DNA of 64,000 bases, taken from the IMG/VR virus record IMGVR_UViG_3300020445_000001. The stretch is one strand, 5' to 3'. Shown here in pieces: positions 2,707 through 58,776 of this stretch. The position numbers and the translations under genes are program-made. The notes beneath the pieces are model-generated. The model was not told the DNA's origin. It was given only the letters and a program-made list of their open reading frames with translations, and ran no database searches. This DNA comes from an uncultured virus (IMG/VR IMGVR_UViG_3300020445_000001) (lineage: Duplodnaviria; Heunggongvirae; Uroviricota; Caudoviricetes). Every line of letters begins with the position of its first letter. Positions within the stretch are counted from its first letter, which is position 1.

Positions 2707-2828
2707 TTTTCACATCTACAATACTTACAAACTTCTATTTCATTTCCACTTCTGTCTATGTCACTTACATATCGTGTTCCACAATGAGAATCGTGTCCAC
2801 AATTTGAACAGAATGAACTAGCTATCAT
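2688..2828 (-). CDS. small Cys/His-rich metal-binding protein (46 aa)
   Basis: CxxCGHxxHC...CxxCxCxxC; ATG at 2828 overlaps the end of iscU. Confidence 0.65.
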   Translation of the reverse strand: MIASSFCSNCGHDSHCGTRYVSDIDRSGNEIEVCKYCRCEKCQDRG

Positions 2829-3210
2829 CACAACTGCACTTTCTTTTATAATCAGAGATCGCAGACTTGACAGCATCTTCAGCAAGAACTGAACAATGTA
2901 TCTTAACTGGGGGAAGTGCAAGTTCGGTTGCAATCTCGGTGTTTTTAATTGATTGTGCATCGTCAATGTGAGCTCCTTTCAGCCACTCAGTAACTAGCGA
3001 ACTACTGGCTATTGCAGAACCACATCCAAATGTTTTAAATTTTGCGTCTGTTATTTTACCTTTGTCATTAACTTCTATCTGAAGTTTCATAACATCACCA
3101 CACGCCGGCGCTCCTACTAAACCAGTACCTACATTTTTCTTATCTTTATCTAATGAACCAACATTTCTTGGGTTCTCATAATGGTCTAATAATTGTTTAC
3201 TGTACGCCAT
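2818..3210 (-). CDS. iscU: Fe-S cluster scaffold protein IscU
   Basis: DHYENPRNVG, GAPACGDVMKLQI, FKTFGCGSAIASSS, LPPVKIHCS motifs. Confidence 0.97.
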   Translation of the reverse strand: MAYSKQLLDHYENPRNVGSLDKDKKNVGTGLVGAPACGDVMKLQIEVNDKGKITDAKFKTFGCGSAIASSSLVTEWLKGAHIDDAQSIKNTEIATELALPPVKIHCSVLAEDAVKSAISDYKRKCSCDDS

Positions 3211-3243: not shown

Positions 3244-3552
3244 TTATGGTTTTCTCTTCTCTGTAATACTATTTTGACAAGGATAACCTATGCTTGTTGT
3301 AACAACAACGGTTTCTTTATCACTACATTGATAAAAACATTTTCTTTCTTCATCTTTTCTACTTCTATCTATTTCTTCATCATATATTCTACAGAATACA
3401 GAATACTCTTGTCGTTCACCATAAGTTCTTGCATTTTTCCTTTGATATGTTTTGCCTTTACCAAATGTTAAATCTGGAAAGGAAATCATTATTACATACC
3501 AAATTAATGAGGCAATAATAATTCTAGACACTAAAGGATTCTCCACAACCAC
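3244..3552 (-). CDS. hypothetical membrane/secreted Cys-containing protein
   Basis: N-terminal hydrophobic segment and 4 Cys; lies between iscA and iscU. Confidence 0.6.
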   Translation of the reverse strand: MVVENPLVSRIIIASLIWYVIMISFPDLTFGKGKTYQRKNARTYGERQEYSVFCRIYDEEIDRSRKDEERKCFYQCSDKETVVVTTSIGYPCQNSITEKRKP

Positions 3553-3850
3553 AACTTGACTTTGTGAGTGGATTATTTATTTTTAGGAAACTACCCATTA
3601 TCTCTTGTACATAATCTATTTCAGCACCCATTATATACATCTCTGCAACTTTATCTACTGCAAGTGATACTTCGTCTTTTATGTGAAATATGGTATGACC
3701 TCTATCAGGCTCATCTATATAATCCCACTTGTAACTGAAACCAGCACAACCACCACCACTTACACCAAAAGAAACAAACTTCTTGTCGTTCTTTTTTGCA
3801 ATGTCGTACAAATATTTTTTTGCGTTTTCTGTTATAGTAATCATAAACAA
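3524..3850 (-). CDS. iscA: A-type Fe-S carrier (IscA/HesB family)
   Basis: GGGCAGFSY and SCGCGESF motifs. Confidence 0.95.
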   Translation of the reverse strand: MFMITITENAKKYLYDIAKKNDKKFVSFGVSGGGCAGFSYKWDYIDEPDRGHTIFHIKDEVSLAVDKVAEMYIMGAEIDYVQEIMGSFLKINNPLTKSSCGCGESFSV

Positions 3851-6678: not shown

Positions 6679-6710
6679 ATACTAACATAGAAAATTATGT
6701 TTGTCAACCC
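6679..6710 (-). promoter_or_regulatory. sigma70-type promoter, GGGTTGACA class with extended -10
   Basis: GGGTTGACA, 17 nt, TG-n-TAGTAT. Confidence 0.7.
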
Positions 6711-7387
6711 TTTGCCAATTTTTTTAATCTTAACTGATTATCAATCCATTGTTTTGCAATGTAATTATTGACCTTTTTAGTTGCAAGTTTTCTAATTGAT
6801 TTAAATACTTTATTAAATACATTTTCGCCTGCATTATTATTGTCAACAACAACAAAGTTTTTAGTACCAAATAAATTTTGAAATTTACCAATGTTTGATT
6901 GTACATTGTTCCAATATGTTTTTACAATATCTGATGGTAGTTTTCTATCTCTTTTGTTATTTCTTTCTATTGCAGTATCTAATGAAGTATTAACAAAAAT
7001 CATATAAGTGTCATAACCCATATCTTGTAACAATCTTTTTTGTAAATTTATTTTACCATATTCTGCACCAGTACCATCTATAATCATACCAAGTCTACCA
7101 GCAACAAAATTCTTTTGCATTTTAGATGTAACTTCTTTTGCTCTTTTTCTTATTTTATCTCTTTCAAGAGTTTTTTCTGGACTCATATCTCTAAAATCCA
7201 AATCAAAGTCTGCATCTTTGAGTAATTTTTCAAATGCATTATCAGAGTTTACAATTTTCAGACCGAGCCCACCAGTGGTTTTTCTTGCTACAAAGGATTT
7301 ACCACTACCAGGCCCGCCTGCTAGAAAAAATGCTTTAAATATATTAGGGTCGTATACACCCTCTTGTAATTGGTCAAATGTCTTCAC
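6704..7387 (-). CDS. P-loop kinase (AAA_33 / zeta-toxin / PNK-like)
   Basis: GGPGSGKS Walker A, IIDGT and ERNxxRxR lid. Confidence 0.85.
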   Translation of the reverse strand: MKTFDQLQEGVYDPNIFKAFFLAGGPGSGKSFVARKTTGGLGLKIVNSDNAFEKLLKDADFDLDFRDMSPEKTLERDKIRKRAKEVTSKMQKNFVAGRLGMIIDGTGAEYGKINLQKRLLQDMGYDTYMIFVNTSLDTAIERNNKRDRKLPSDIVKTYWNNVQSNIGKFQNLFGTKNFVVVDNNNAGENVFNKVFKSIRKLATKKVNNYIAKQWIDNQLRLKKLAKG

Positions 7388-10733: not shown

Positions 10734-11186
10734 ATGAGTTATAGTGGTCGTTTCATTCCCTCTGATACTAAAAAGTATAAAGGTAATCCTACTACTATTT
10801 ATTACAGAAGTTTGTGGGAACGAAAATTTATGGTGTATTGTGATAAAAATCCTAGAGTATTAGAGTGGGGGTCAGAAGAACTGATAATACCTTATTTTTT
10901 ACCAACAGATGGCAAATATCATAGATATTTCCCAGATTTCTATGTCAAAGTCAAAAGAGCAGATGGTAAATTAAAAAAAATGATAATAGAAGTCAAACCT
11001 AAAAAATATACTGTTGAACCTAAAATACCTAAAAGAAAAACAAAATCGTTCATAAAAGAGGTTTACGAGTGGGGAAAGAACACTGCAAAATGGAAAGCTG
11101 CAAAAGAATATTGTAGAGATAGAAATATGGATTTTGTAATATTGACTGAAGACCACCTCAATCCCACTTATAAATATAGTAAATGA
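10734..11186 (+). CDS. gp4: head completion nuclease gp4
   Basis: YRSLWE, WGSEE..IPY, HRYFPDF and IEVKP motifs. Confidence 0.93.
   Translation: MSYSGRFIPSDTKKYKGNPTTIYYRSLWERKFMVYCDKNPRVLEWGSEELIIPYFLPTDGKYHRYFPDFYVKVKRADGKLKKMIIEVKPKKYTVEPKIPKRKTKSFIKEVYEWGKNTAKWKAAKEYCRDRNMDFVILTEDHLNPTYKYSK
11169..11176 (+). promoter_or_regulatory. T4-type late promoter TATAAATA
   Basis: Exact consensus before gp2. Confidence 0.75.
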
Positions 11187-20424: not shown

Positions 20425-20630
20425 ACTGGTAGTTTACCCATTTTAGGTAAAAAGTTTAAATCTCTTGCGTTTGCTTCTATTTTATCTTTAAGTGGTTTTT
20501 GGATTAGACCAGTTATACTATCTGGTTCTACTTCGTTCTTGGTACAATATTCTAATATTGCATCCATATGTGATATGTTTTTCTCTCTGACTTGAGATTC
20601 TATGTATATTGAAAATGTTTTTGGTGTCAT
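20421..20630 (-). CDS. gp33: late transcription coactivator gp33
   Basis: FS..IE...MDAILEYC...LKDKIE..A..LNFL. Confidence 0.9.
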   Translation of the reverse strand: MTPKTFSIYIESQVREKNISHMDAILEYCTKNEVEPDSITGLIQKPLKDKIEANARDLNFLPKMGKLPV

Positions 20631-20658
20631 AATGTATTCACAATCTAATAAAAATTAA

Positions 20659-20702
20659 TAAAAAAGGGTGGGTTCAAACCTCAAGGGTATTATACCCCAC
20701 CC
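20659..20702 (-). terminator. probable terminator after pqqA
   Basis: GGGTGGG...CCCACCC stem followed by TTTTTT on the minus strand. Confidence 0.65.
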
Positions 20703-20715
20703 AATTTCTGCGAAA

Positions 20716-20793
20716 TTACTTCTCAGCGCAAGCGTAAGAATTAATTTCAAGACCTACTGAAATTTCAGTAATAGTTGGTTTTGACCAAGCCAT
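20716..20793 (-). CDS. pqqA: pyrroloquinoline quinone precursor peptide PqqA (25 aa)
   Basis: MAWSKPTITEISVGLEINSYACAEK with W.KP...G.E-I-N-S-Y (ExxxY); AGGAG RBS. Confidence 0.92.
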   Translation of the reverse strand: MAWSKPTITEISVGLEINSYACAEK

Positions 20794-20816
20794 AGTTATT
20801 CTCCTAACTAGTATTG

Positions 20817-20848
20817 GAGTGCTGGTTGCCTTGGGCCGCAGACCACTC
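20817..20848 (-). other. GC-rich RNA hairpin in the pqqA leader
   Basis: GAGUG...CACUC closing stem with inner CUG/CAG and GCC/GGC pairs. Confidence 0.55.
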
Positions 20849-20858
20849 ATTATTAAAT

Positions 20859-21104
20859 GGTGAGTATTCTGTTACTAGGAACTCACCGAACCCTATCAGA
20901 TTAAGCAGCTAGTGCGAAATCTTGAAATGCAAAGTTATCGTTTGCGTTTATCGTTTTGACCTATAAGGAAGTCAACCCATACTCTCCAACAACCCTTTAA
21001 CATCTGTCTACCCTATTTCACCCCCTCATTAGAGGCTTTTTGGTGGAGGTGGAGGGTACTGCCCCCTCGTCCAGTCTATCTCAAAGTCGTCTTCGTCAAG
21101 TATC
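20859..21104 (-). ncRNA. ssrA: circularly permuted two-piece tmRNA (alphaproteobacterial type)
   Basis: Acceptor piece ending CACCTCCACCA (3' end at 21041) precedes a 15 nt spacer and the coding piece starting GGGGGTG (21025); G3:U70 pair; tag ORF 20945-20901 reads ANDNFAFQDFALAA*; outer boundaries approximate. Confidence 0.93.
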
Positions 21105-21109
21105 CTTTA

Positions 21110-21117
21110 TATCTATA
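21110..21117 (-). promoter_or_regulatory. late-promoter variant TATAGATA upstream of the tmRNA
   Basis: One mismatch to TATAAATA at the expected position. Confidence 0.5.
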
Positions 21118-21158
21118 AATTACATTTCTGTAAGTTATATGAACAAACTGTTAATTTG

Positions 21159-21845
21159 TCATTTACCAGTCTCTACAGTATTATAATATAGATTTAACTC
21201 TTTGTCAAGTAGATGCAAATATTTATGTTTATCTTTTACAAACTCTTGAACTGTACCGTCTTCTGTAACCACTAATATAACTATCTGGTTTATCTCTTGT
21301 GATGTTCTTTCTTGATACATCTCTGCATATGCAGAGGCTTGTATATAATAGTTCTCATTCCAATTATCTTCTCGTTCTTTGGTACTTGTTTTGAAATCAA
21401 TTACAGACAACTCTCCGTTCCACTCTGCAATACAATCAACCCTACCAGCAATCTTATAAAAGTCGTGCCATAATGCTCTTTCTTGACAATGTATCAATCC
21501 AATTCTTTTATCTAAATATGGTTTTAGTTGTGAGAACAAACAATAAGATAGAAATCTACCTTTTTTATATTCATTCCAATCTTTGTTCTCATAACCATTG
21601 TCTAAATACTTTTCACAATAATGATGTACTTGAGTTCCTCTTGTTGCAGATTTTCTTGAAACATAAGTTGCAACATCCTCACCAACTCTTTTTCTCCACT
21701 CAAATAAACCTTCTTTACCTCTGTTTTTTAAAACAGTAGTAATAGATGGATAAAACTTACCTTCTGGTGTTTCGTATAACCTTATACCATCAGAAGTCTT
21801 AGCACTTATGTCTGGTATATCTAAATTATTTTTGTGTTGGAACAT
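21159..21845 (-). CDS. PD-(D/E)XK exonuclease (Cas4/RecB-like); start probably MFQHK
   Basis: YPSITTVL, RGT.VH, AGRVDC..IDFKTS and Y.Q..AY motifs. Confidence 0.9.
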   Translation of the reverse strand: MFQHKNNLDIPDISAKTSDGIRLYETPEGKFYPSITTVLKNRGKEGLFEWRKRVGEDVATYVSRKSATRGTQVHHYCEKYLDNGYENKDWNEYKKGRFLSYCLFSQLKPYLDKRIGLIHCQERALWHDFYKIAGRVDCIAEWNGELSVIDFKTSTKEREDNWNENYYIQASAYAEMYQERTSQEINQIVILVVTEDGTVQEFVKDKHKYLHLLDKELNLYYNTVETGK

Positions 21846-21930
21846 TCTTTTTCTTATATTCATCTGGTACTTTTCCATAACCTACAACTCTATCCCATTC
21901 TCTTTGAGTATAACCTTTTTTATCTAACAT
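21826..21930 (-). CDS. small hypothetical protein (34 aa, MLDKKGYTQREWDRVVG...)
   Basis: Hand-translated; fills the gap with overlaps on both sides. Confidence 0.55.
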   Translation of the reverse strand: MLDKKGYTQREWDRVVGYGKVPDEYKKKNVPTQK

Positions 21931-22463
21931 TTTCTATTAATTCCATTATAAGCTATTGATATTCTTTTTTCTTTAGTGTCACCTATGTAATGTTGTAACA
22001 TAGAATTAAAAACTATTAGATGTCCAGTTCTAGCATTAAATTTATAATAATCACTATTATATTCATTAAACTCGTCTATCATATCATTAGATTGATGAGA
22101 TATTAATGATTGCATAGGATTTAAAAATGAAATGTGACCGTCTGTTGCCAAAGGATAATATACAGCAGATATAAAAGATTCTCTGTGATTATGTGGTTCT
22201 GTTATTAAATCATCATTATTAACATTTGACCAAGCTTGTGATACTACCATATTATATTTGTCATTATATATTTTACTATAATACTCATTCATTTTTATTT
22301 TTACAACATTATTTAATTCTGTAAATATATTATTAGTGAGTATATCTTTATTTTCTTTCACACCATTTCTGATTGAATTTTTTTCTGAATAGTTAATAAT
22401 TGATTCATTATCTATACCTTCTAATTTAAATGTTTCTATGCCTGTTGAAAATATATTTTGCAT
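21924..22463 (-). CDS. 2OG-Fe(II) oxygenase (TIGR02466-like)
   Basis: W.N...PHNH..ISAVYY...FNS.LQH...RISIAYN. Confidence 0.85.
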   Translation of the reverse strand: MQNIFSTGIETFKLEGIDNESIINYSEKNSIRNGVKENKDILTNNIFTELNNVVKIKMNEYYSKIYNDKYNMVVSQAWSNVNNDDLITEPHNHRESFISAVYYPLATDGHISFLNPMQSLISHQSNDMIDEFNEYNSDYYKFNARTGHLIVFNSMLQHYIGDTKEKRISIAYNGINRKC

Positions 22464-22472
22464 TGTAAGTAA

Positions 22473-22943
22473 TTATACATTTAATCCTTTTGTGTATACT
22501 ACTTTACCATTTATTTTACTTGCTGTCAATACCGATTTTCTATTTTTTCCATCTTCATTATAAGATATATGAATCCACCCACTTCTAGGGTCGCCTGGTG
22601 TATAGAACTCTAAAATGAGCTGGTCAAAATCTAGATTGTTTTCTATCCACATAGCCACATCTGCATTACTTTCTTTTAAACACTCAAGGTCAACCGCCTG
22701 ACCTTTACAATGTTGTGACCTTGATGAACCACCTATCTTTGCATTTAAATCTGGACTTCTATACCCAGATGTAATGAGTGTTATACCAAACTTTTCTCTT
22801 ATTGGTTGTACAACATTTGCAAATAACTTTTTTGCATTTTGTAAATGTTCTTCACTTAATGAATTATCTATTCCGTGTCGTGTTGCAGTTTGTGATTTAA
22901 TATATTCTGCAACTGTAAAATTTGCACTTAATTTTTCAGACAT
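22473..22943 (-). CDS. peptidase M15A (Zn D-Ala-D-Ala carboxypeptidase fold, candidate endolysin)
   Basis: SGYRS..LN..IGGS..SQH..GQAVD...WIHISY. Confidence 0.9.
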   Translation of the reverse strand: MSEKLSANFTVAEYIKSQTATRHGIDNSLSEEHLQNAKKLFANVVQPIREKFGITLITSGYRSPDLNAKIGGSSRSQHCKGQAVDLECLKESNADVAMWIENNLDFDQLILEFYTPGDPRSGWIHISYNEDGKNRKSVLTASKINGKVVYTKGLNV

Positions 22944-22952
22944 ATTTTCTCC

Positions 22953-23522
22953 TTAAAAATTTACCTTGTAACTCACACCTATTGCATTATATTGACTATC
23001 ACCTCTTTTAAATTTACTTCCGATACCTATACTATTATTCTTATCAAGGTTATAAGATATCTCTGCCTTATATGTAGTGTCTGATTGTTCGTATATAGAA
23101 TCAAAACTATCTCTGAATCTTACACCACCTTTAATACTCCAGACATCATTTAATTTATATTTTAGACCAGGCTCTATGTGCCAGTATTCGTGACTTTTAT
23201 CTCTAGTGAACTTATATCCAGCACCACCTCGTATGTACATACTAAGTTTACCATAAACTTTTTTAGAACTTATCAATGCAAATTCTGCTCTCTGGTCATT
23301 ACTGGTAGAACTATCTTTTACTTTTAATCTTGTTTTTATTTCAGCAGAGAATACATCATTTAGTTTCTTACCAACAGTAAGTCCATACTCTGATGCATTT
23401 TTACCACCATTCAATCCGTCTTGTAAACCATAACCAAATTTTGCATAATAACCATCTGCACTTACAGTAATAGGTAATGCAACAATACTTGCAATCATCA
23501 AATATTTTTTCATTATTGACAA
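22953..23522 (-). CDS. outer-membrane beta-barrel porin-like protein
   Basis: Signal peptide, alternating amphipathic beta strands, C-terminal GVSYKVNF (Bam signal). Confidence 0.85.
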   Translation of the reverse strand: MSIMKKYLMIASIVALPITVSADGYYAKFGYGLQDGLNGGKNASEYGLTVGKKLNDVFSAEIKTRLKVKDSSTSNDQRAEFALISSKKVYGKLSMYIRGGAGYKFTRDKSHEYWHIEPGLKYKLNDVWSIKGGVRFRDSFDSIYEQSDTTYKAEISYNLDKNNSIGIGSKFKRGDSQYNAIGVSYKVNF

Positions 23523-23725
23523 CTTCCCTCTGGGTGTTCACCATTTTCTTCTGGTGATTTTCCGTGTTTTAAATAATAATCTCTAGCCTTACGAATATTT
23601 ACACCGTGATGATTTTCCATATTACACCATTTTTTAATGTATTCATTTTCTGGTTCAAGTCTTAATACTTCTTTCACTAATGTTTCTTGTATTCTCCAAT
23701 CCCATCTTTGTTTTGTACTTTGCAT
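23513..23725 (-). CDS. hypothetical protein
   Basis: ORF with AGGAG RBS. Confidence 0.6.
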   Translation of the reverse strand: MQSTKQRWDWRIQETLVKEVLRLEPENEYIKKWCNMENHHGVNIRKARDYYLKHGKSPEENGEHPEGSCQ

Positions 23726-23728
23726 AAT

Positions 23729-24433
23729 TTACTCTCCTAGACCAAGTTTTGTTTTTTCTATTAAATAATTACGAACAAAACCAGAACGAACAATATCACC
23801 TATTGTAAATTCTACTGTTTCAAATTCTTTCATTTGTTCTAATATTCTCATAAAATCTTGTAGTCCTTCTTTTTCACTCATCTTGGTTAAATCTGATTGA
23901 AAGAAATCACCACAAAATATAATTTTACTATCTTGACCAACTCTTGTAACAATCGTATCTAATTCGTGAAAGTTACAGTTCTGAGATTCGTCAACAATTA
24001 CGACAGCATTATCTAATGTTATACCACGAAGATATGAAGTTGTCAAGAAGGTAACACTACCTTGATTCTTTAATCTGTCGTATAACATACTAAATGCATT
24101 ATCACTTGATTGTTCAAACATAAACTGAACCATATTATGATATGGTACTTGATACAATGCAGACTTATCTTCTTCATCACCAGGCAGAAACCCCATATCT
24201 CTTGTTGGAACAACTGAACGAATAATGATAACATTTTCGTACTTAGTTTTTGGGTCTAATACTTGCTCTAATGCAAGATACATTGATATAAAAGTTTTTC
24301 CAGTACCAGCTGCACCAAACAAAAACAAATTCTTATTGTCTTTTCTCCAGGCATTAAAGACTACCTTTTGATTATCTGTAATTGGTTTTACAGTAACTAA
24401 ATTATCTAATTTAATGTCTTGTTTTTTACTCAT
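23729..24433 (-). CDS. phoH: PhoH family ATPase
   Basis: GAAGTGKT, GFLPG, RGITL, VDESQN and GD..QSDL motifs. Confidence 0.96.
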   Translation of the reverse strand: MSKKQDIKLDNLVTVKPITDNQKVVFNAWRKDNKNLFLFGAAGTGKTFISMYLALEQVLDPKTKYENVIIIRSVVPTRDMGFLPGDEEDKSALYQVPYHNMVQFMFEQSSDNAFSMLYDRLKNQGSVTFLTTSYLRGITLDNAVVIVDESQNCNFHELDTIVTRVGQDSKIIFCGDFFQSDLTKMSEKEGLQDFMRILEQMKEFETVEFTIGDIVRSGFVRNYLIEKTKLGLGE

Positions 24434-25151
24434 AACTTTCCTCGTAATTATTTCCTAAATTATCAGTATATACTATTTTTTCTATATCACCACTAAACAA
24501 AATAAAGTAATGATTTTGTGATATACCGATTGTTCCCTCATATGAGAATATACCTTTACTTGTTTTAACAACAACAGAGTCAATATAATCTGCTGGTATT
24601 TCTGTTCTAGTTAATTGATCAAATTGTAGTCCAGAATAGTTTGGGTGATTGAATTGAATTTTCTTTTTATCAAAATGTAATTTATCATCAATAATATCTA
24701 CTCTATCTTTTGGTACACTACTATCAACTATTGGTGTTGCAGAACAACCACCAGCTGCCTTAATATACTTTCTATTATAAAATAAATTACCATCTATATC
24801 TTCTGCAACAACAGTTAAGTGTGTGTATGCATTTACTCTTATATTAGTTTCAATATACGGTAATAAACCTACAAATTCAAATGTTGCACAACAAGGTGTT
24901 GGATTCTCGTCTATAATTAAAGTAAATTTAATTAAGTCTTTTGACTTTGTTGTGATAACAATAGGAACATCACCACCATCTATTGCACGATAAGGTGATT
25001 TAATGATTATATCATCAGTTTGTTCTAAAAACTGTTCTTCATATAAATCATCTTTTAACCATTCATTCCAACTATCAGATGTAGAAAATTTAGGTATCAA
25101 CAATATTATACCAAGTATTATTAAACTAAGTGCGATTTTTGTGTTTGTCAT
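24426..25151 (-). CDS. quinoprotein dehydrogenase-associated SoxYZ-like carrier (fused SoxY-SoxZ, exported)
   Basis: Signal peptide; IIDENPTP, IRVNAYT..V.AE, KAAGGCSA, HPNYSGLQFDQLT..IPA.YI and ISQN motifs. Confidence 0.85.
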   Translation of the reverse strand: MTNTKIALSLIILGIILLIPKFSTSDSWNEWLKDDLYEEQFLEQTDDIIIKSPYRAIDGGDVPIVITTKSKDLIKFTLIIDENPTPCCATFEFVGLLPYIETNIRVNAYTHLTVVAEDIDGNLFYNRKYIKAAGGCSATPIVDSSVPKDRVDIIDDKLHFDKKKIQFNHPNYSGLQFDQLTRTEIPADYIDSVVVKTSKGIFSYEGTIGISQNHYFILFSGDIEKIVYTDNLGNNYEESYE

Positions 25152-29072: not shown

Positions 29073-29315
29073 TTATGTCCAAAAGTTCATTAAACCAACA
29101 ACTGATATAATAAACCCAACAGAGTTTAATAGTATGATAGAACCGTCTTTCCAATAATATCCAACACTAACCCATACAACACTACCAATGGTCATAAAGT
29201 ATAGGTTTAGTGGATAGATATTAAAAGATGTAAAACATAAGCCTGTCAACAATAGGATAGAACCAAACCATTTTAGACCTCTAACATCTTTTCTTTTTCT
29301 ATTTTTCTTATACAT
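29073..29315 (-). CDS. small multi-TM membrane protein
   Basis: KW.G...NIYPLN with three TM segments. Confidence 0.7.
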   Translation of the reverse strand: MYKKNRKRKDVRGLKWFGSILLLTGLCFTSFNIYPLNLYFMTIGSVVWVSVGYYWKDGSIILLNSVGFIISVVGLMNFWT

Positions 29316-29539
29316 CTTCTTGTACTCGCAGCCTTCTCTTTTCTTTTTCTTTCACTTCTAGTTTCAAAAAATTCTCTTTTGCGAAGTTCATTGAACATAT
29401 CTTCTTTTTGTAATTTCTTTTTAAGTTTTCTGATTGCCTTATCTACATTACCATTTTCTACTGCAACAGCAGTACCAGGCAATCTTTTCTCTGGAAATCT
29501 TTTCTTTTTATTAAATTTATGAACTTGTTTGAATCGCAT
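29273..29539 (-). CDS. rpsU: ribosomal protein bS21
   Basis: V.V..GNVDKAIRKLKKK...ELRKREFFE..SE.KR.K.A..RR. Confidence 0.9.
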   Translation of the reverse strand: MRFKQVHKFNKKKRFPEKRLPGTAVAVENGNVDKAIRKLKKKLQKEDMFNELRKREFFETRSERKRKEKAASTRRCIRKIEKEKMLEV

Positions 29540-45660: not shown

Positions 45661-48402
45661 CTAATTATCAACCTTTGCACCTTTTCTCCATTGATAACAA
45701 CTCCAGTATCGTGCCTTTGTTTTTGGGCCAGGATTATCACAATTATGTCTTGCCCTAAAACTCTTTAATCTGTTAGGGTCATCCCTCTTTATCTCCATAT
45801 TTGGATCGCCGAAAGTCACTTTAACTACATTACCTTTTTCATTTTTCACATAAACACCAAACTTTTTATTACTTCCACTAGGTAGTCTAAATGGGTCATT
45901 TAACTTAACTTTACGACCTTGATATTCAGATTCTACTATGTCTAGTTTCTCTATATATTTATCTTCTAAATCATCTTTAGAAATCTTTGACCTCATAAGA
46001 TTATAGGTTTCTTGGAGTTTTTCTTCCCATTCATCTTTGTATCTTTCTTGATACTCTTTTCTAGTAGACGGTCTTTCAAACCACTCTTGTATATTGGATT
46101 CACTCGCAAACTTTGACTTGACTGATAGTTCATAGTCTTGGCCTGGTGTAACATTAAATGTATGTCTAGCATAAGGTTCTCCTATTTCATATGACTCTTT
46201 CTTTTTAGATGCTTTTGCTTGTTTTTGTAAGTCTGGGTCTGCTTTACCACCAGTTAACATTGAGTTCACTCTTGCAAATGCCCATTGTTGTGGTGTAGTG
46301 CCTGGTCTGTGTCCAGTTTTCCAAGCTGCAAGTCCTCTATCATAACTCTTTTTTAGAATACCATAAGGCACACCAGTTTGTTGTGATTTCTTAACTAAAC
46401 CTTCAATCTTTTCATTAAGATTTACAGATTCATCTATTTCAAAATCAACTTTGGCTGCAAGTTCAGATGGTAATTTACCTTTTTTTACTAAACCATTTAT
46501 GTAATATGCAATATCTCTTGCATCAACACCTTTCATCATTTGTCCTAATGCACCAGCAGGATTTCTATGTCCTTGTTTATGCATTTGCATATACATTTTA
46601 AGTATCTTTTCATAACCTTTAGGGTGAGTCATTTGATGTATCTTATCATATATCTTTCTATAATAAGGCATTTCTTTTATATCATCTGATTGTTCTTCTA
46701 ACTGTTCTTTTAATGCACTTAACATATCTTTATATGATTTAGAAATTTTACTCTGAAATTTTTCTTTATCAGATGCTTTTTTCATAGAATCATATTTTGA
46801 TTGAACTGCTTGTGCAATCTTAGATGAAACTTTTACTTTCTTCTTATCCATAAATTGTACTGGAAAATTACCTCGTAAAGATACAGACTTTCTTAGTTGC
46901 ATCATAATATTTTTATCTGCAGCTTTAATATCGTCATCTGTTGCAAAATCATCAACATCTGCTGGGTCTACTTTTTTTTCTGAAACTTCACCATACATTT
47001 GTTTGAATTTTTTAGTATATTGTGAAGGTTTAGTTTTCTTATCTTTATCACCAGGCGCTGATTTGTATGCATTTGGGTTATCATCGTCCATTTTCGCTCC
47101 CTTTGTAAAATGGGCATCTCTTGCCTTTTTAGTAGATACAGACATTCCTTTTTTATCACCTACACCTTTTGCATAATACTTTGCTGGTTCGGAGCCTGGA
47201 CTGTCTTTTATATCTGGGTCTTGTTTTGTTTTTGTTATTTTTTTTGTTTCTTTTATTGAATGAAGAAATGCTTTATGTACATTTTCACCATCTGTGTATT
47301 GTACATAGTTTGTTCCTCTTCTAATTATTTCACCACTAGTTCCATCATTTATATTTTCTACCAAATCACCGATTTGATAGATTGTACCTCTGATGTATAA
47401 ATCTCTTTCAATTTCTTCATCAGAGTATTTTGAATTTTCTTTTAAGTTCATACCTTTTCTCACATCCTTGAATAATTGATTACCATTTTTAAAACCTCTT
47501 GGTAATCCTTTTTGAAATGTATCATAATCATTATTAGTTGCAGCTGCCCTCATCTTAGATGCACTCATTCCAGTAACACCTTCTGCATCTGGGTCTCTTT
47601 CGCCTGCACTAAAAATATTAATAGTATCAAAATCATAAAAACCGTGTCGTTTTTCTTGACCATTATATGTTGTCAATAGTTTTTTAAACTCTGCAACTCT
47701 ATCAGAACCTACCACCATATTTAATTCTACATAACCTTGTTGATGAAAGTAAACTGCAATATCTAAAACTGTTTTTAATTTGTTATTTGCGATTATGTTT
47801 CTTTTGTGTTTTGGAAACATATCTCTCATATATGCAACTTTCTTTGCAAGTGGTAAAGGGTCTTTCTTATTGTTTTGAGAATGTGATGGGAATATATAAT
47901 AGTCATCACCACCAGCAATCTTCTTAACTTTTTCTATTAGTTTTTCGTGGCCAGTTGTTGGTGGATTGAATCTACCAAATGTAAATACAACTGATTCAGT
48001 TCCTTCTGAAAAAGTTCTAAACGATTCGTACTTAATAACCTTATTAGGTGTTTTGAAGTTTTGTTTTCTCATAATAGTCTTGTTTGTTACTTCTATTTCA
48101 TTACCTTTTGTTTTAATAACAACTGGTAAATTTAAATTAGTTGACATATCTTTTAAAACAGCTTGTATGTCTGGGTTGTTTATTATATTCCTTGCTTTGT
48201 TTTTTTGAATCTTCTTAAAGAACCTTTGTAATTCAGATACTTTTATCTCTGGACTATTTCTTGGGTCATTCATTCTATCTACAAAGTGTTTAGTAAATTC
48301 TATATCAACTCCATATTTTTTTAATATTCTATCTGCAAATTTTTCTAAATCATTTATATCTTTTCTTGATACCTCTTCTTCTAATAACTCTCTAAGTTTC
48401 AT
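45661..48402 (-). CDS. multidomain protein with HIGH-family nucleotidyltransferase (cytidyltransferase-like) domain
   Basis: FGRFNPPTTGH, VVGSDR and SASKMR motifs, plus several further modules. Confidence 0.88.
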   Translation of the reverse strand: MKLRELLEEEVSRKDINDLEKFADRILKKYGVDIEFTKHFVDRMNDPRNSPEIKVSELQRFFKKIQKNKARNIINNPDIQAVLKDMSTNLNLPVVIKTKGNEIEVTNKTIMRKQNFKTPNKVIKYESFRTFSEGTESVVFTFGRFNPPTTGHEKLIEKVKKIAGGDDYYIFPSHSQNNKKDPLPLAKKVAYMRDMFPKHKRNIIANNKLKTVLDIAVYFHQQGYVELNMVVGSDRVAEFKKLLTTYNGQEKRHGFYDFDTINIFSAGERDPDAEGVTGMSASKMRAAATNNDYDTFQKGLPRGFKNGNQLFKDVRKGMNLKENSKYSDEEIERDLYIRGTIYQIGDLVENINDGTSGEIIRRGTNYVQYTDGENVHKAFLHSIKETKKITKTKQDPDIKDSPGSEPAKYYAKGVGDKKGMSVSTKKARDAHFTKGAKMDDDNPNAYKSAPGDKDKKTKPSQYTKKFKQMYGEVSEKKVDPADVDDFATDDDIKAADKNIMMQLRKSVSLRGNFPVQFMDKKKVKVSSKIAQAVQSKYDSMKKASDKEKFQSKISKSYKDMLSALKEQLEEQSDDIKEMPYYRKIYDKIHQMTHPKGYEKILKMYMQMHKQGHRNPAGALGQMMKGVDARDIAYYINGLVKKGKLPSELAAKVDFEIDESVNLNEKIEGLVKKSQQTGVPYGILKKSYDRGLAAWKTGHRPGTTPQQWAFARVNSMLTGGKADPDLQKQAKASKKKESYEIGEPYARHTFNVTPGQDYELSVKSKFASESNIQEWFERPSTRKEYQERYKDEWEEKLQETYNLMRSKISKDDLEDKYIEKLDIVESEYQGRKVKLNDPFRLPSGSNKKFGVYVKNEKGNVVKVTFGDPNMEIKRDDPNRLKSFRARHNCDNPGPKTKARYWSCYQWRKGAKVDN

Positions 48403-56599: not shown

Positions 56600-57580
56600 T
56601 TACATAAACTCCTCTAAGTTTCCACTTTCTTTGGCTGCATACTTACCAATAAGTTTTTCTTGTTTACCATAAACACCTACTGTTGCAAGTCTTCTATCAC
56701 AATATGCAACACAACTAAACCTTTGTCCAGAACCTCTTATCTCTGTAACTCCGTGTACTTCATTACTATCTGCAATGATTACTGAGTTATCTGGTGCATC
56801 AAGAGCAACTCCATATCTAGGAAACACTAAGTATGCACCCTCATAATCACCTTCTCTGAAAACGCACATTGATGTAAGTCCAGCATCTGTATCTCCACTA
56901 TCAATATGTGCAGACATCTTTGTAGATTGATATGCAGAATATCTATTTGCAGAAAGTGTTGTAAATATACCACCACCAACTCTATGTTCTGGTTTTATGT
57001 TATTATCTGCAAAACTCTTTTGAGATTTGTATACTTGTTCGTTTGCTTTCTTAAATGCAATCTCATTCCATTTAGATATCTCTTGAAGTCTTTCCCATCT
57101 CTCTTTATTATCTTTACACCAACCAGATGAATCTATTGCACCAGTAAATCTTCCTCTTTTATATCCTATCATTACTGAATGTATTTCATTACTGTATGCA
57201 ATCATACCCCATTTACCAGATTTGGTTTTTACATAATAAGAGTTTGGTGTTCTTAATTTATAATGTTCACCCTCTATCAAACCTTTTTTCTTCATTTCTT
57301 CTTTATCAATAGGCCCAGAACAATTTGCTCTCATTGTAGATGTATCTTCTATTGTTGTGAGAACATCTCTAATATCATCATTAGGATATACATTGTTTAC
57401 AACATATGCAAGGGGAACATCAGAACCATCTAATGACCTTACTGGTTTCATTATTCCTAAATCTTCTTTTTGTGTAACTTTGTAAACTTTATCATAAGAT
57501 GAATCATCTAAGAATTTACCATTCCATTTTTCAAATGTTTCTTTCTTACCATAATCTTTTTCTAATACTATCTTTTTCAT
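56600..57580 (-). CDS. TET/JBP-family 2OG-Fe(II) dioxygenase (5-methylpyrimidine oxidase)
   Basis: FTT...N...HIDSGD...G..L.FP.Y.V.......D...HG.T...RFS.VAY. Confidence 0.85.
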   Translation of the reverse strand: MKKIVLEKDYGKKETFEKWNGKFLDDSSYDKVYKVTQKEDLGIMKPVRSLDGSDVPLAYVVNNVYPNDDIRDVLTTIEDTSTMRANCSGPIDKEEMKKKGLIEGEHYKLRTPNSYYVKTKSGKWGMIAYSNEIHSVMIGYKRGRFTGAIDSSGWCKDNKERWERLQEISKWNEIAFKKANEQVYKSQKSFADNNIKPEHRVGGGIFTTLSANRYSAYQSTKMSAHIDSGDTDAGLTSMCVFREGDYEGAYLVFPRYGVALDAPDNSVIIADSNEVHGVTEIRGSGQRFSCVAYCDRRLATVGVYGKQEKLIGKYAAKESGNLEEFM

Positions 57581-58776
57581 TTTGTTTCCTTATATGGTTT
57601 TAGGATATTTTCATAAATCTTTTTTGATAGATAATGTAATTGTAAAGGTGCAACCATCAACCCTATCCTCGCAAGGTTGTCATCTAATTTACCAACAAGT
57701 TTATAATCTTCTGGTAATGTCATTATTCTTGCAGCCTCAATAGTAGTAAAAACTCTATCTTCTTCTGGGTGTAAATGAACTGCAAGAGATTGTCTTAATC
57801 CTTGTTCTGATAGAGTATGACTTGGTTGATTCCAAGGCACTCTTCTTGATTGATAAAAACTATGTTTTTCTTTCCATTCACTTTTACCCCACTTCTTTCT
57901 ATGTTCAATTACTTTTCTATACCAAGGCCCGACAACATCATCACCAACAGACATAACTTTGTCTGGATTCTTTTGTAATCTTTTTAACCACTTATATTTA
58001 GCACTTTTCTTCATAGACTCTTTTAATTCAAATGCTTCAGATATATTTTTATTTGTCTTTTGTATATCATATATTGCATCTTTAATATTATATCTTTCTT
58101 CTTTTGGGTCTGGAAATATAGAACTATCTAAACACATAAAAGGTAAACCTATATCATCTAATACATCTTCTCTAACTGATACTATAAAAACTCTTTCTCT
58201 CTTTTGTGGAACTCCGTGTTCGTGTCCTTTTAAAACTCTCCATACTGTATGATATCCGTGTGATTCAAAATCTTTAACCATTCTATTTAAATGATCTCTT
58301 GCATAATCCATTGTTAAACCTTTAACATTTTCACAAACAACAACTCTAGGTTTTAAATCACCAACAATTCTAATTTGTTCCCAAGTTAAATCTTCAATGT
58401 TTTTTTGTTTCATACCATATGCAGTTTTTTCTTGATTCCAACCTTTTTGTTTTGTACCAGACATACTAAATGGTGGACAAGGTGGTGAACCATCTAATAT
58501 ATCTAACTCACCAGGCTTTAGTCCAGTCATTTCCATAATCTTTTGACCAGTAACATTTTTAATATCACCACAGATATGTTGTGTGTTTGGAAAGTTTGCA
58601 AGATAATCATTTACTGCAACTTGTTGAAACTCATTTACAAATAAACATTCACCACCAGATAATTTATATCCACAAGAAGAACCACCTCCACCAGCAAAGA
58701 AGCTGATAAAATTAAATAGTTTTCTATTTGCAGACTTTTCTAAATCGTCTAATGTATATCTAAAATAATTACCCAA
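57577..58776 (-). CDS. DNA (cytosine-5) methyltransferase
   Basis: FAGGGG, GSPPC, ENV and VPQ.RER motifs, plus motif IX/X R.MT.P. Confidence 0.95.
   Translation of the reverse strand: MGNYFRYTLDDLEKSANRKLFNFISFFAGGGGSSCGYKLSGGECLFVNEFQQVAVNDYLANFPNTQHICGDIKNVTGQKIMEMTGLKPGELDILDGSPPCPPFSMSGTKQKGWNQEKTAYGMKQKNIEDLTWEQIRIVGDLKPRVVVCENVKGLTMDYARDHLNRMVKDFESHGYHTVWRVLKGHEHGVPQKRERVFIVSVREDVLDDIGLPFMCLDSSIFPDPKEERYNIKDAIYDIQKTNKNISEAFELKESMKKSAKYKWLKRLQKNPDKVMSVGDDVVGPWYRKVIEHRKKWGKSEWKEKHSFYQSRRVPWNQPSHTLSEQGLRQSLAVHLHPEEDRVFTTIEAARIMTLPEDYKLVGKLDDNLARIGLMVAPLQLHYLSKKIYENILKPYKETK

Follow-up and report, generated by a model that had tools for sequence, protein, structure and literature searches.

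Viral soxYZ genes are among the textbook examples of how marine viruses influence the sulfur cycle. Four of them were described by Roux et al. (2016; bioRxiv 10.1101/053090) on contigs of the T4 superfamily, together with PhoH and Fe-S genes, and were read as sulfur-oxidation genes; according to the preprint they are widespread in the low-nutrient surface ocean and are seen in metatranscriptomes. In the account of Kieft et al. (2020; bioRxiv 10.1101/2020.08.24.253096), 44 viral soxYZ genes were compared under the same sulfur reading and a 'Methylophilales-like clade' was noted. Lake Baikal phages of methylotrophs were described by Coutinho et al. (2020; PMC7678222) as encoding a methanol dehydrogenase and PqqA, the precursor peptide of pyrroloquinoline quinone (PQQ), for which a boost of PQQ was proposed. 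Here we analysed a stretch of 64,000 nucleotides from the uncultured virus IMGVR_UViG_3300020445_000001 of the IMG/VR database (the whole stretch is called the window below), in which a pqqA gene and a gene for a fused SoxY-SoxZ-like carrier lie on the same strand. The carrier was found to group with a family of fused proteins that bacteria encode beside PQQ-dependent (quinoprotein) dehydrogenases, and we lean, without great assurance, towards the reading that the phage supplies two consumable parts of the host's XoxF-type PQQ-dependent alcohol/methanol oxidation, namely the precursor peptide and the carrier.

The published viral soxYZ genes resemble that of the window in being fused SoxY-SoxZ genes that accompany PhoH and genes of Fe-S biosynthesis on contigs of the T4 superfamily. 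The window gene, compared with genes that are known here by description, stands apart in its placement in the quinoprotein-associated family, its linkage to pqqA and a phage-specific Cys-Cys pair. With the Lake Baikal phages the window shares a phage-encoded PqqA and a proposed supply of PQQ for methanol oxidation by the host; those phages are from freshwater and have a viral methanol dehydrogenase and no SoxYZ-like carrier, whereas the present system is marine, has no viral dehydrogenase and pairs pqqA with the carrier, and its pqqA occurs on many phage backbones. The logic is that of the viral DsrC-type auxiliary genes, where phages copy a stoichiometric component with fast turnover and not the catalytic enzyme, and Kieft et al. 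(2020) state that viruses favour carriers over catalytic subunits. The pathway differs, since what is proposed here is cofactor supply together with an accessory carrier of a quinoprotein dehydrogenase. The preliminary description of the locus had regarded the combination as undescribed as a phage system. This was too broad, as viral fused soxYZ has been in print since 2016 and viral pqqA is known from Lake Baikal. Our literature searches (pqqA with phage and auxiliary; SoxYZ with quinoprotein) returned no description of the pqqA-SoxYZ pairing, supplements aside, and the pairing and its PQQ reading are new relative to the papers searched.

The carrier is a single polypeptide in which Pfam places a SoxY domain at residues 36-136 and a SoxZ domain at residues 164-239. 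Its N-terminus is hydrophobic and signal-like, and the carrier cysteine, Cys136, lies in an internal KAAGGCSA motif between the two domains, in agreement with the exported fused SoxY-SoxZ protein with an intact GGC cysteine that had been noticed beforehand. An AlphaFold model (predicted local distance difference test, pLDDT, 77.8) matched solved SoxY chains with template modelling (TM) scores of 0.73-0.80 and SoxZ chains with scores of 0.70-0.72. When the protein was compared with curated hidden Markov models, the family of quinoprotein-dehydrogenase-associated fused SoxYZ proteins, TIGR04557, gave 133.2 bits, while the models for true SoxY (48.6 bits, cut-off 125) and true SoxZ (26.1 bits, cut-off 76) both fell far short. 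TIGR04557 was also the top family for all of 15 diverse phage homologues (42-91% identical), with a best E value of 1.3e-46 compared with 3.3e-15 for true SoxY. The motifs KAAGGCSA(P), DENPxP and HPNYSGxQ are common to the phage proteins and 84 cellular members of the family; KAAGGCSA is invariant in the 15 phage proteins, and [VI]KA[AS]GGCS[AT]P is present in 84 of 84 cellular ones. Canonical SoxY examples end in GGCGG or GGCG, while about 105 residues follow the GGC of the window protein. In a tree of the SoxY domain (103 rows, 132 columns), phage and fused cellular proteins were separated from three canonical and one AACIE-type SoxY with a support of 100 in the Shimodaira-Hasegawa-like approximate likelihood ratio test (SH-aLRT), with a small outgroup (these four rows) and long branches. 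Scores and tree thus placed the carrier where the preliminary description had expected it, with the quinoprotein-associated fused family and not with canonical SoxY or SoxZ, and we class it as a divergent relative of TIGR04557, not as a canonical Sox carrier.

The cellular genes of this family do lie beside PQQ dehydrogenases, as the preliminary description had stated: of 84 loci, 58 had a PQQ-dehydrogenase homologue no more than 10 kb away, and among the 52 loci that are at least 15 kb long the number was 44. In the 64-kb window Pfam detected no PQQ dehydrogenase, and the phage carrier is linked to pqqA instead; nor did Pfam find any other sox gene there, including soxAX, soxB and soxCD. The family of PP_2677, from the ped cluster of Pseudomonas putida, shares with the phage carrier the fused architecture, the internal KAAGGCSAP, DENPxP and HPNYSGxQ motifs, a Sec-type signal and a link to PQQ genes. 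The phage carriers differ from it in a low identity, of only 30-38% to the closest cellular proteins in a search of 185,579 species genomes, in their own long-branched clade, in two extra cysteines and in a position beside pqqA rather than a dehydrogenase. The 15 phage proteins formed one clade with a long stem in a full-length tree of 99 rows (SH-aLRT 100). The extra cysteines are a vicinal pair, Cys87-Cys88, in the sequence IDENPTPCCA; all 15 phage proteins possess the pair, and in all 84 cellular homologues the carrier cysteine is the sole cysteine. The pair aligns to 'HI' after NPTP in the SoxY of Thermus.

The pqqA gene was confirmed as well, its scores being above the cut-offs of both curated PqqA models (Table 1). 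It is nested in a listed open reading frame (ORF) of 44 aa at 20716-20850; the ATG is at 20793, the stop at 20716-20718 and the product is MAWSKPTITEISVGLEINSYACAEK. PqqA peptides have a glutamate and a tyrosine with three residues between them, which become cross-linked, and a W-x-x-P leader. The window peptide (...GLEINSY...) has the Glu-X3-Tyr pair as E16...Y20 and a W-x-K-P leader with W3 and P6. Pair and leader were kept in 62 of 62 peptide variants from viral loci, a result that the pattern-based retrieval forces in part; 39 copies found by way of SoxYZ are free of this bias and have the same ORF and the same stop. Across 22 codons the variable sites numbered 10, 7 and 21 at the first, second and third codon positions, third positions thus varying most, again with a bias from the search pattern. 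The hairpin directly after the stop folds with -18.8 kcal/mol (z -2.2), and 3 of 200 shuffled sequences were equally stable; a simple terminator scan did not call it because its loop is too long. The gene looks functional, as it has a Shine-Dalgarno (SD) sequence and a terminator-like hairpin and both its frame and its stop are conserved. No second match to the PqqA motif was seen in a six-frame scan of the window, and profile searches and Pfam found no pqqB-E there, hence no adjoining pqqBCDE.

Upstream of pqqA, at a distance of 65 nt, lies a two-piece transfer-messenger RNA (tmRNA), which was recognised by Rfam and not called by ARAGORN. A promoter-like site with a perfect match to the sigma-70 consensus precedes the tmRNA; in the window overall such sites are not in excess (29, with a mean of 29.4 in shuffled sequences). 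Because of the short spacing and this site, tmRNA and pqqA look like a single unit and are probably transcribed as one. The closest cultured relative of the window, Methylophilales phage Melnitz (Kyanoviridae; 68.7% nucleotide identity over 23% of a 6-kb query), is reported to have a glutamine riboswitch at its tmRNA (Buchholz et al., 2022; PMC9004378); unlike in Melnitz, no riboswitch of this or another kind reached the Rfam gathering score in the tmRNA region of the window.

It had been noticed beforehand that pqqA, the SoxYZ-like gene and a gene for an outer-membrane beta-barrel lie close together, and all three were found on the minus strand within 4.4 kb. They are not chance ORFs, because pqqA and SoxYZ recur in dozens of viral contigs related to the window. 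In IMG/VR, 62 contigs encode a relative of the carrier, and in 39 of these pqqA follows downstream on the same strand. Among the 23 contigs without pqqA, 21 end less than 2.6 kb past the carrier and are too short to contain the slot, so that pqqA is present in 39 of the 41 informative contigs; the co-occurrence that the preliminary description had proposed to check is thus nearly constant on the side of the carrier. The distance between the two genes is 2.6-4.6 kb in 28 contigs and 525-900 bp in the other 11, and the linkage covers all three phage SoxYZ sub-clades. The 11 contigs with the short distance form a divergent lineage, whose other proteins are 32-60% identical to those of the window and in which SoxYZ, iscA, an ORF of about 60 aa, pqqA, sometimes an ORF of 312 aa, and iscU follow each other within about 2 kb. 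RNA-library contigs from four libraries of three studies matched the window with 90-100% identity over pqqA and the tmRNA (e.g. 20600-21164) and over PhoH and the carrier (23432-25076). They are no more than consistent with transcription; contigs of this kind show neither strand nor level, and DNA contamination is possible.

Viruses were also searched for pqqA alone, with a degenerate DNA pattern for GLEINSYACAE. At least 120 viral contigs matched the pattern; they belong to several types of phage, and most of them lack SoxYZ. In other backbones pqqA lay between the genes for terminase and portal, along with Cpn10-like and capsid genes, or beside a holin of the gene transfer agent (GTA) type, an MptE-like protein and a class II ribonucleotide reductase, or in a myophage type of 38% G+C; the viral pqqA loci L161-L239 (e.g. 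L172, L198, L228, L217, L171, L194 and L162) lie on unrelated backbones. Since pqqA spans many backbones and is mostly found without the carrier, it clearly has a wide distribution of its own among marine phages, to which the carrier is an addition within a single myophage group. Two types of viral PqqA peptide were observed, ending in …EISVGLEINSYACAEK and …EVAVGLEINCYACAEI. In the collection of cultured phages tblastn found no SoxYZ and neither tblastn nor blastn found pqqA, for which a query of 25 aa is weak; the complete genome of Melnitz had no carrier, no match to the pqqA pattern and no IscU, and PHROGs contained no family for pqqA, SoxYZ or the beta-barrel.

The whole pathway was found in candidate hosts. 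Four single-cell genomes of marine uncultured Alphaproteobacteria (31-32% G+C, assemblies of about 1.3 Mb) share one island with a pedC-like permease, pqqA-B-C-D-E, a pseudoazurin, a MoxJ-like binding protein, a methanol-type cytochrome c and a PQQ dehydrogenase. The latter is an XoxF-type enzyme of 672 aa (TIGR03075, 668 bits). Adjacent to it, in divergent orientation, is the gene for a SoxYZ-like carrier (241 bits), and then come tetrahydromethanopterin (H4MPT) and fae genes; the proteins flanking the host SoxYZ gene had no NCBIfam match. Among the 42 species genomes of the candidate host order, which are of low G+C content and 0.8-2.0 Mb in size, the XoxF-type dehydrogenase exceeded the cut-off in 25 and a SoxH-related 'relay' hydrolase (TIGR04559) in 28. 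SoxB exceeded its cut-off in none of the 42, with a positive control in Thermus, and the SoxYZ-like carrier did so in 29 of 61 relatives; as the genomes are incomplete, all these counts are lower bounds. The PqqA copies of this order are identical to the phage PqqA at 22-23 of 25 positions. When 401 genomes sampled evenly across the class were scanned for the exact EISVGLEINSYACAEK-coding pattern, it was present in four, all of the candidate order, with 1-4 copies each.

The PQQ pathways that the preliminary description would have looked for in hosts, pqqABCDE with an XoxF-type enzyme, are therefore present in this order, and the link of the phage to it is indirect. We infer that the order is the best host candidate because of the identity and pattern of PqqA, the low G+C content and the alphaproteobacterial type of the tmRNA. 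Extra host pqqA copies (G002:C14, G024:C17/C20, G030:C5 and G020:C11; loci L294-L299) lie far from the pqqABCDE operon, some of them paired 0.8-2.4 kb apart, near RecQ, a MadB-like ATPase and ABC transporters. They were considered as possible phage contigs and rejected as such, since RecQ and ABC transporters are ordinary chromosomal contexts. One genome of the order contains a T4-like phage-type contig of 58.5 kb and 35-36% G+C (G024:C13, L287-L289). It was rejected as a host link, its DNA polymerase being 28-35% identical to that of the window and the contig having no match to the pqqA pattern.

If the phage supplies both precursor and carrier, its pqqA would provide extra peptide, one of which is consumed for each PQQ made by the PqqB, C, D and E of the host. 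With the exported SoxYZ-like protein the phage would provide more of the cysteine 'swinging-arm' carrier whose gene accompanies PQQ dehydrogenases in bacteria, and the host would contribute PqqB-E, the dehydrogenase and the SoxH-like hydrolase. Expression in infection would sustain periplasmic alcohol oxidation, and hence energy supply, in a streamlined oligotrophic host. The preliminary description had likewise proposed that the phage augments periplasmic PQQ-dependent oxidation; the carrier family, the linkage to pqqA and the candidate hosts speak for this, while the part that it gave to the beta-barrel has to be dropped.

Several observations weigh against this joint supply of precursor and carrier. 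T4-like phages gather unrelated auxiliary genes in islands, so that adjacency is weak evidence of coupling. The frequency of pqqA in marine phages without SoxYZ means that co-occurrence alone does not show coupling either: SoxYZ lay within 8 kb in just 3 of 79 newly fetched pqqA loci, two of them already counted, with many of the contigs being short. Many of the contigs with the carrier are near-identical, and their counts are not independent events; two of them, L051 and L052, carry SoxYZ and lack pqqA although 9.2 and 6.7 kb follow downstream. The window carrier itself is 6.8 bits under the cut-off of TIGR04557 (133.2 against 140 bits), and a very long branch leads to the phage clade, which is nested in no cellular group, that of the candidate hosts included. 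The function of the phage carrier may have changed, because its invariant Cys-Cys pair is absent from all cellular members. In a review of the ped cluster (2026; PMC12997753), the function of the cellular family is itself given as unknown, with disulfide or maturation control and the protection of PQQ from sulfur nucleophiles as hypotheses. As to the host, no genome of the candidate order holds a close relative of the phage, and the tmRNA proved uninformative as a link, since only its tRNA-like part matches the candidate hosts (74-82% over about 70 nt); Melnitz is reported to have an alphaproteobacterial-type tmRNA and yet a gammaproteobacterial host (PMC9004378). Alternatively, the two genes would be independent morons, of which pqqA alone would aid the PQQ supply of the host, as elsewhere among marine phages, and the carrier, with its phage-specific Cys-Cys pair, would have another periplasmic thiol, redox or sulfur role, the two being brought together by a shared host range and an auxiliary island. 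Such an explanation accounts for pqqA on many backbones without SoxYZ, for L051 and L052, for the phage-only cysteine pair and for the 3.6 kb of the window between the two genes, which hold PhoH, an endolysin-like peptidase, a nuclease and the tmRNA. It does not account well for the presence of pqqA in 39 of 41 informative contigs, always downstream and on the same strand, for the tight adjacency in 11 contigs of a lineage that is otherwise only 32-60% identical, or for a nearest cellular family that is specifically associated with PQQ dehydrogenases, and we regard it as unlikely, if still worth serious attention.

The published explanation, in which viral fused soxYZ boosts Sox-type oxidation of thiosulfate or sulfur and pqqA is unrelated, draws on the SoxY and SoxZ domains and the carrier cysteine, on its adoption by Roux et al. 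(2016) and Kieft et al. (2020) and on one source that labels the homologues 'sulfur-oxidizing protein SoxY'. It seems to us highly improbable in view of the true SoxY and SoxZ scores, far below cut-off next to that of TIGR04557, of a carrier motif that is internal and not a C-terminal GGCGG, of the lack of another sox gene in the window by Pfam, of the PQQ dehydrogenases that adjoin the cellular relatives and of SoxB at 0 of 42 in the inferred host order. In addition, the text of the 2016 preprint does not contain the words PQQ, pqqA, quinoprotein or methanol, and PQQ does not occur in that of Kieft et al. (2020), supplements aside. The least probable of the explanations weighed is that the PqqA-like peptide is a decoy titrating host PqqD or PqqE, or else an untranslated conserved sequence tied to the tmRNA. 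The missing pqqB-E of the phage, the position of pqqA just after the tmRNA and the riboswitch reported for the equivalent place in Melnitz (PMC9004378) would be in its favour. However, the cross-link residues and the leader are intact in a peptide that equals host copies at up to 23 of 25 positions, the gene has an SD sequence and its stop is conserved, third codon positions vary most (with the bias mentioned above) and no Rfam riboswitch reached gathering score; other phage types have pqqA without a tmRNA nearby, between terminase and portal or beside iscU. It is also possible, if doubtful, that the viral 'soxYZ', which is abundant worldwide, is not a sulfur-oxidation gene and encodes a neofunctionalised periplasmic carrier, in which a Cys-Cys pair of phages only adjoins the swinging-arm cysteine, and that with PqqA, and with IscU and IscA feeding PqqE, it makes up a viral toolkit for cofactor supply and maturation of the lanthanide/PQQ XoxF-type methanol dehydrogenase of a streamlined marine alphaproteobacterial lineage. 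In that case phages of the surface ocean would reprogram C1 (one-carbon) and alcohol oxidation, and the spread of pqqA over unrelated marine phage types would make PQQ supply a general viral target.

If viral soxYZ belongs to PQQ and XoxF, its biogeochemical reading moves from sulfur to methanol/alcohol (C1) oxidation, and other hosts become likely. Viral pqqA, on at least 120 contigs of several types, would form a new class of auxiliary genes, widespread and, at 25 codons, easily missed. The phages also offer a handle on the PP_2677-type carriers, as they keep only carrier and cofactor precursor, which points to the limiting parts, and the phage-specific Cys-Cys pair is a concrete and testable difference.

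Table 1. Features of the window that are discussed in the text, with their positions and the evidence for each
Feature	Position	Strand	Evidence
iscU (NifU_N), possible accessory	2818..3210	-	PF01592 176.3 bits; 76.6% to iscU of L053 (tblastn)
iscA/HesB-type Fe-S assembly protein, possible accessory	3524..3850	-	PF01521 52.2 bits; 75.9% to iscA of L053 (tblastn)
Terminator-like GC-rich hairpin, GGGUGGG...CCCACCC, then U-run	20660..20702	-	directly 3' of the pqqA stop
pqqA, PQQ precursor peptide, 25 codons	20716..20793	-	TIGR02107 37.8 bits (cut-off 20); PF08042 30.4 bits (cut-off 21.1)
Shine-Dalgarno-like AGGAG	20801..20805	-	7 nt before the pqqA ATG, read from the sequence
Two-piece (permuted) alphaproteobacterial-type tmRNA, tag ANDNFAFQDFALAA	20858..21158	-	Rfam RF01849 106.6 bits; RF04321 113 bits
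Sigma-70 consensus promoter-like site, TTGACA-17-TATAAT	21180..21208	-	12/12 match, upstream of tmRNA-pqqA
Small outer-membrane beta-barrel protein	22953..23513	-	PF13505 34.5 bits (cut-off 28.7)
Fused SoxY-SoxZ-like putative periplasmic carrier, 241 aa	24426..25151	-	Pfam SoxY 74.9 bits; SoxZ 37.2 bits

The window has about 30% G+C and is coded nearly entirely on the minus strand. Pfam identified T4-type gp32, gp59, a late-transcription coactivator, RNase H, baseplate proteins and a clamp loader, as well as RegA, a family-B DNA polymerase, a UvsX-like RecA and PhoH, and the window is a T4-like marine myophage. It has in common with Melnitz the local order of gp32, gp59, gp33, the two-piece tmRNA, a PD-(D/E)XK nuclease and PhoH. 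The nearest viral record was an IMG/VR contig of 48.7 kb (G001).

The iscU and iscA genes, which the preliminary description had also connected with PQQ, lie 17-21 kb from pqqA in the window. In the locus of the divergent lineage used for comparison in Table 1 (L053), iscU flanks pqqA and iscA comes after SoxYZ, and iscU is directly beside pqqA in three loci, L194 (on a backbone without T4 markers), L201 and L238. Phage C48C1 has an IscU and no match to the pqqA pattern, and IscU is therefore not tied to pqqA. That the two proteins help by maturing the Fe-S enzyme PqqE is plausible, and we put it forward only tentatively.

The ORF of the beta-barrel is listed as 22953-23522 and its likely start is the ATG at 23513. 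The protein has a signal-like N-terminus and ends in ...YKVNF, with a final Phe. About 10 strands were predicted, one of five models being confident (pLDDT 77.9, the others 46-54), and the best fold matches, with TM scores of 0.5-0.65, were a designed 10-strand barrel, the 12-strand porins NanC and KdgM, and OpcA. The barrel was present in 20 of the 62 contigs with SoxYZ and in none of 79 other pqqA loci; it was missing from 21 contigs that have both flanking genes (M15 and PhoH), and in L055 it was at a different place. One RNA-library contig (run X9) joins 22938 to 23489 and so skips it. The outer-membrane barrel of the preliminary description is thus real, and its membership in the module was not borne out: it is a variable cassette outside the module, and any link between the two is very unlikely. 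We also see no ground for its possible role in substrate entry; the prediction, with one confident model, is of a small barrel of about 10 strands and not of a general porin. The neighbouring gene for a 2-oxoglutarate (2OG)-Fe(II) oxygenase (21924-22463) is a presence/absence cassette as well; it is absent from most related contigs, and an RNA-library contig that joins 21930 to 22489 skips it.

Some other genes of the window were also noted. A C-5 cytosine DNA methylase (PF00145, 187 bits) and then a Tet/JBP-type 2OG dioxygenase (PF12851) are encoded at 56600-58776 on the minus strand, adjoining the DNA polymerase gene, and this pair suggests a pathway of 5-methylcytosine oxidation (hypermodified DNA). 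A phage-encoded ribosomal protein S21 (PF01165, 49.1 bits) is at 29273-29539 (minus strand). A protein with a TnsA-like endonuclease N-terminal domain (PF08722, 89 bits) is encoded at 10734-11186 among the baseplate genes, on the plus strand and thus opposite to the majority, and is possibly a homing-endonuclease-like insert. Two further genes on the minus strand code for a protein of 913 aa with a cytidylyltransferase-like domain and DUF5824 (45661-48402) and for a P-loop kinase that matches the Zeta-toxin/AAA_33 families (6704-7387; PF06414, 38.6 bits).

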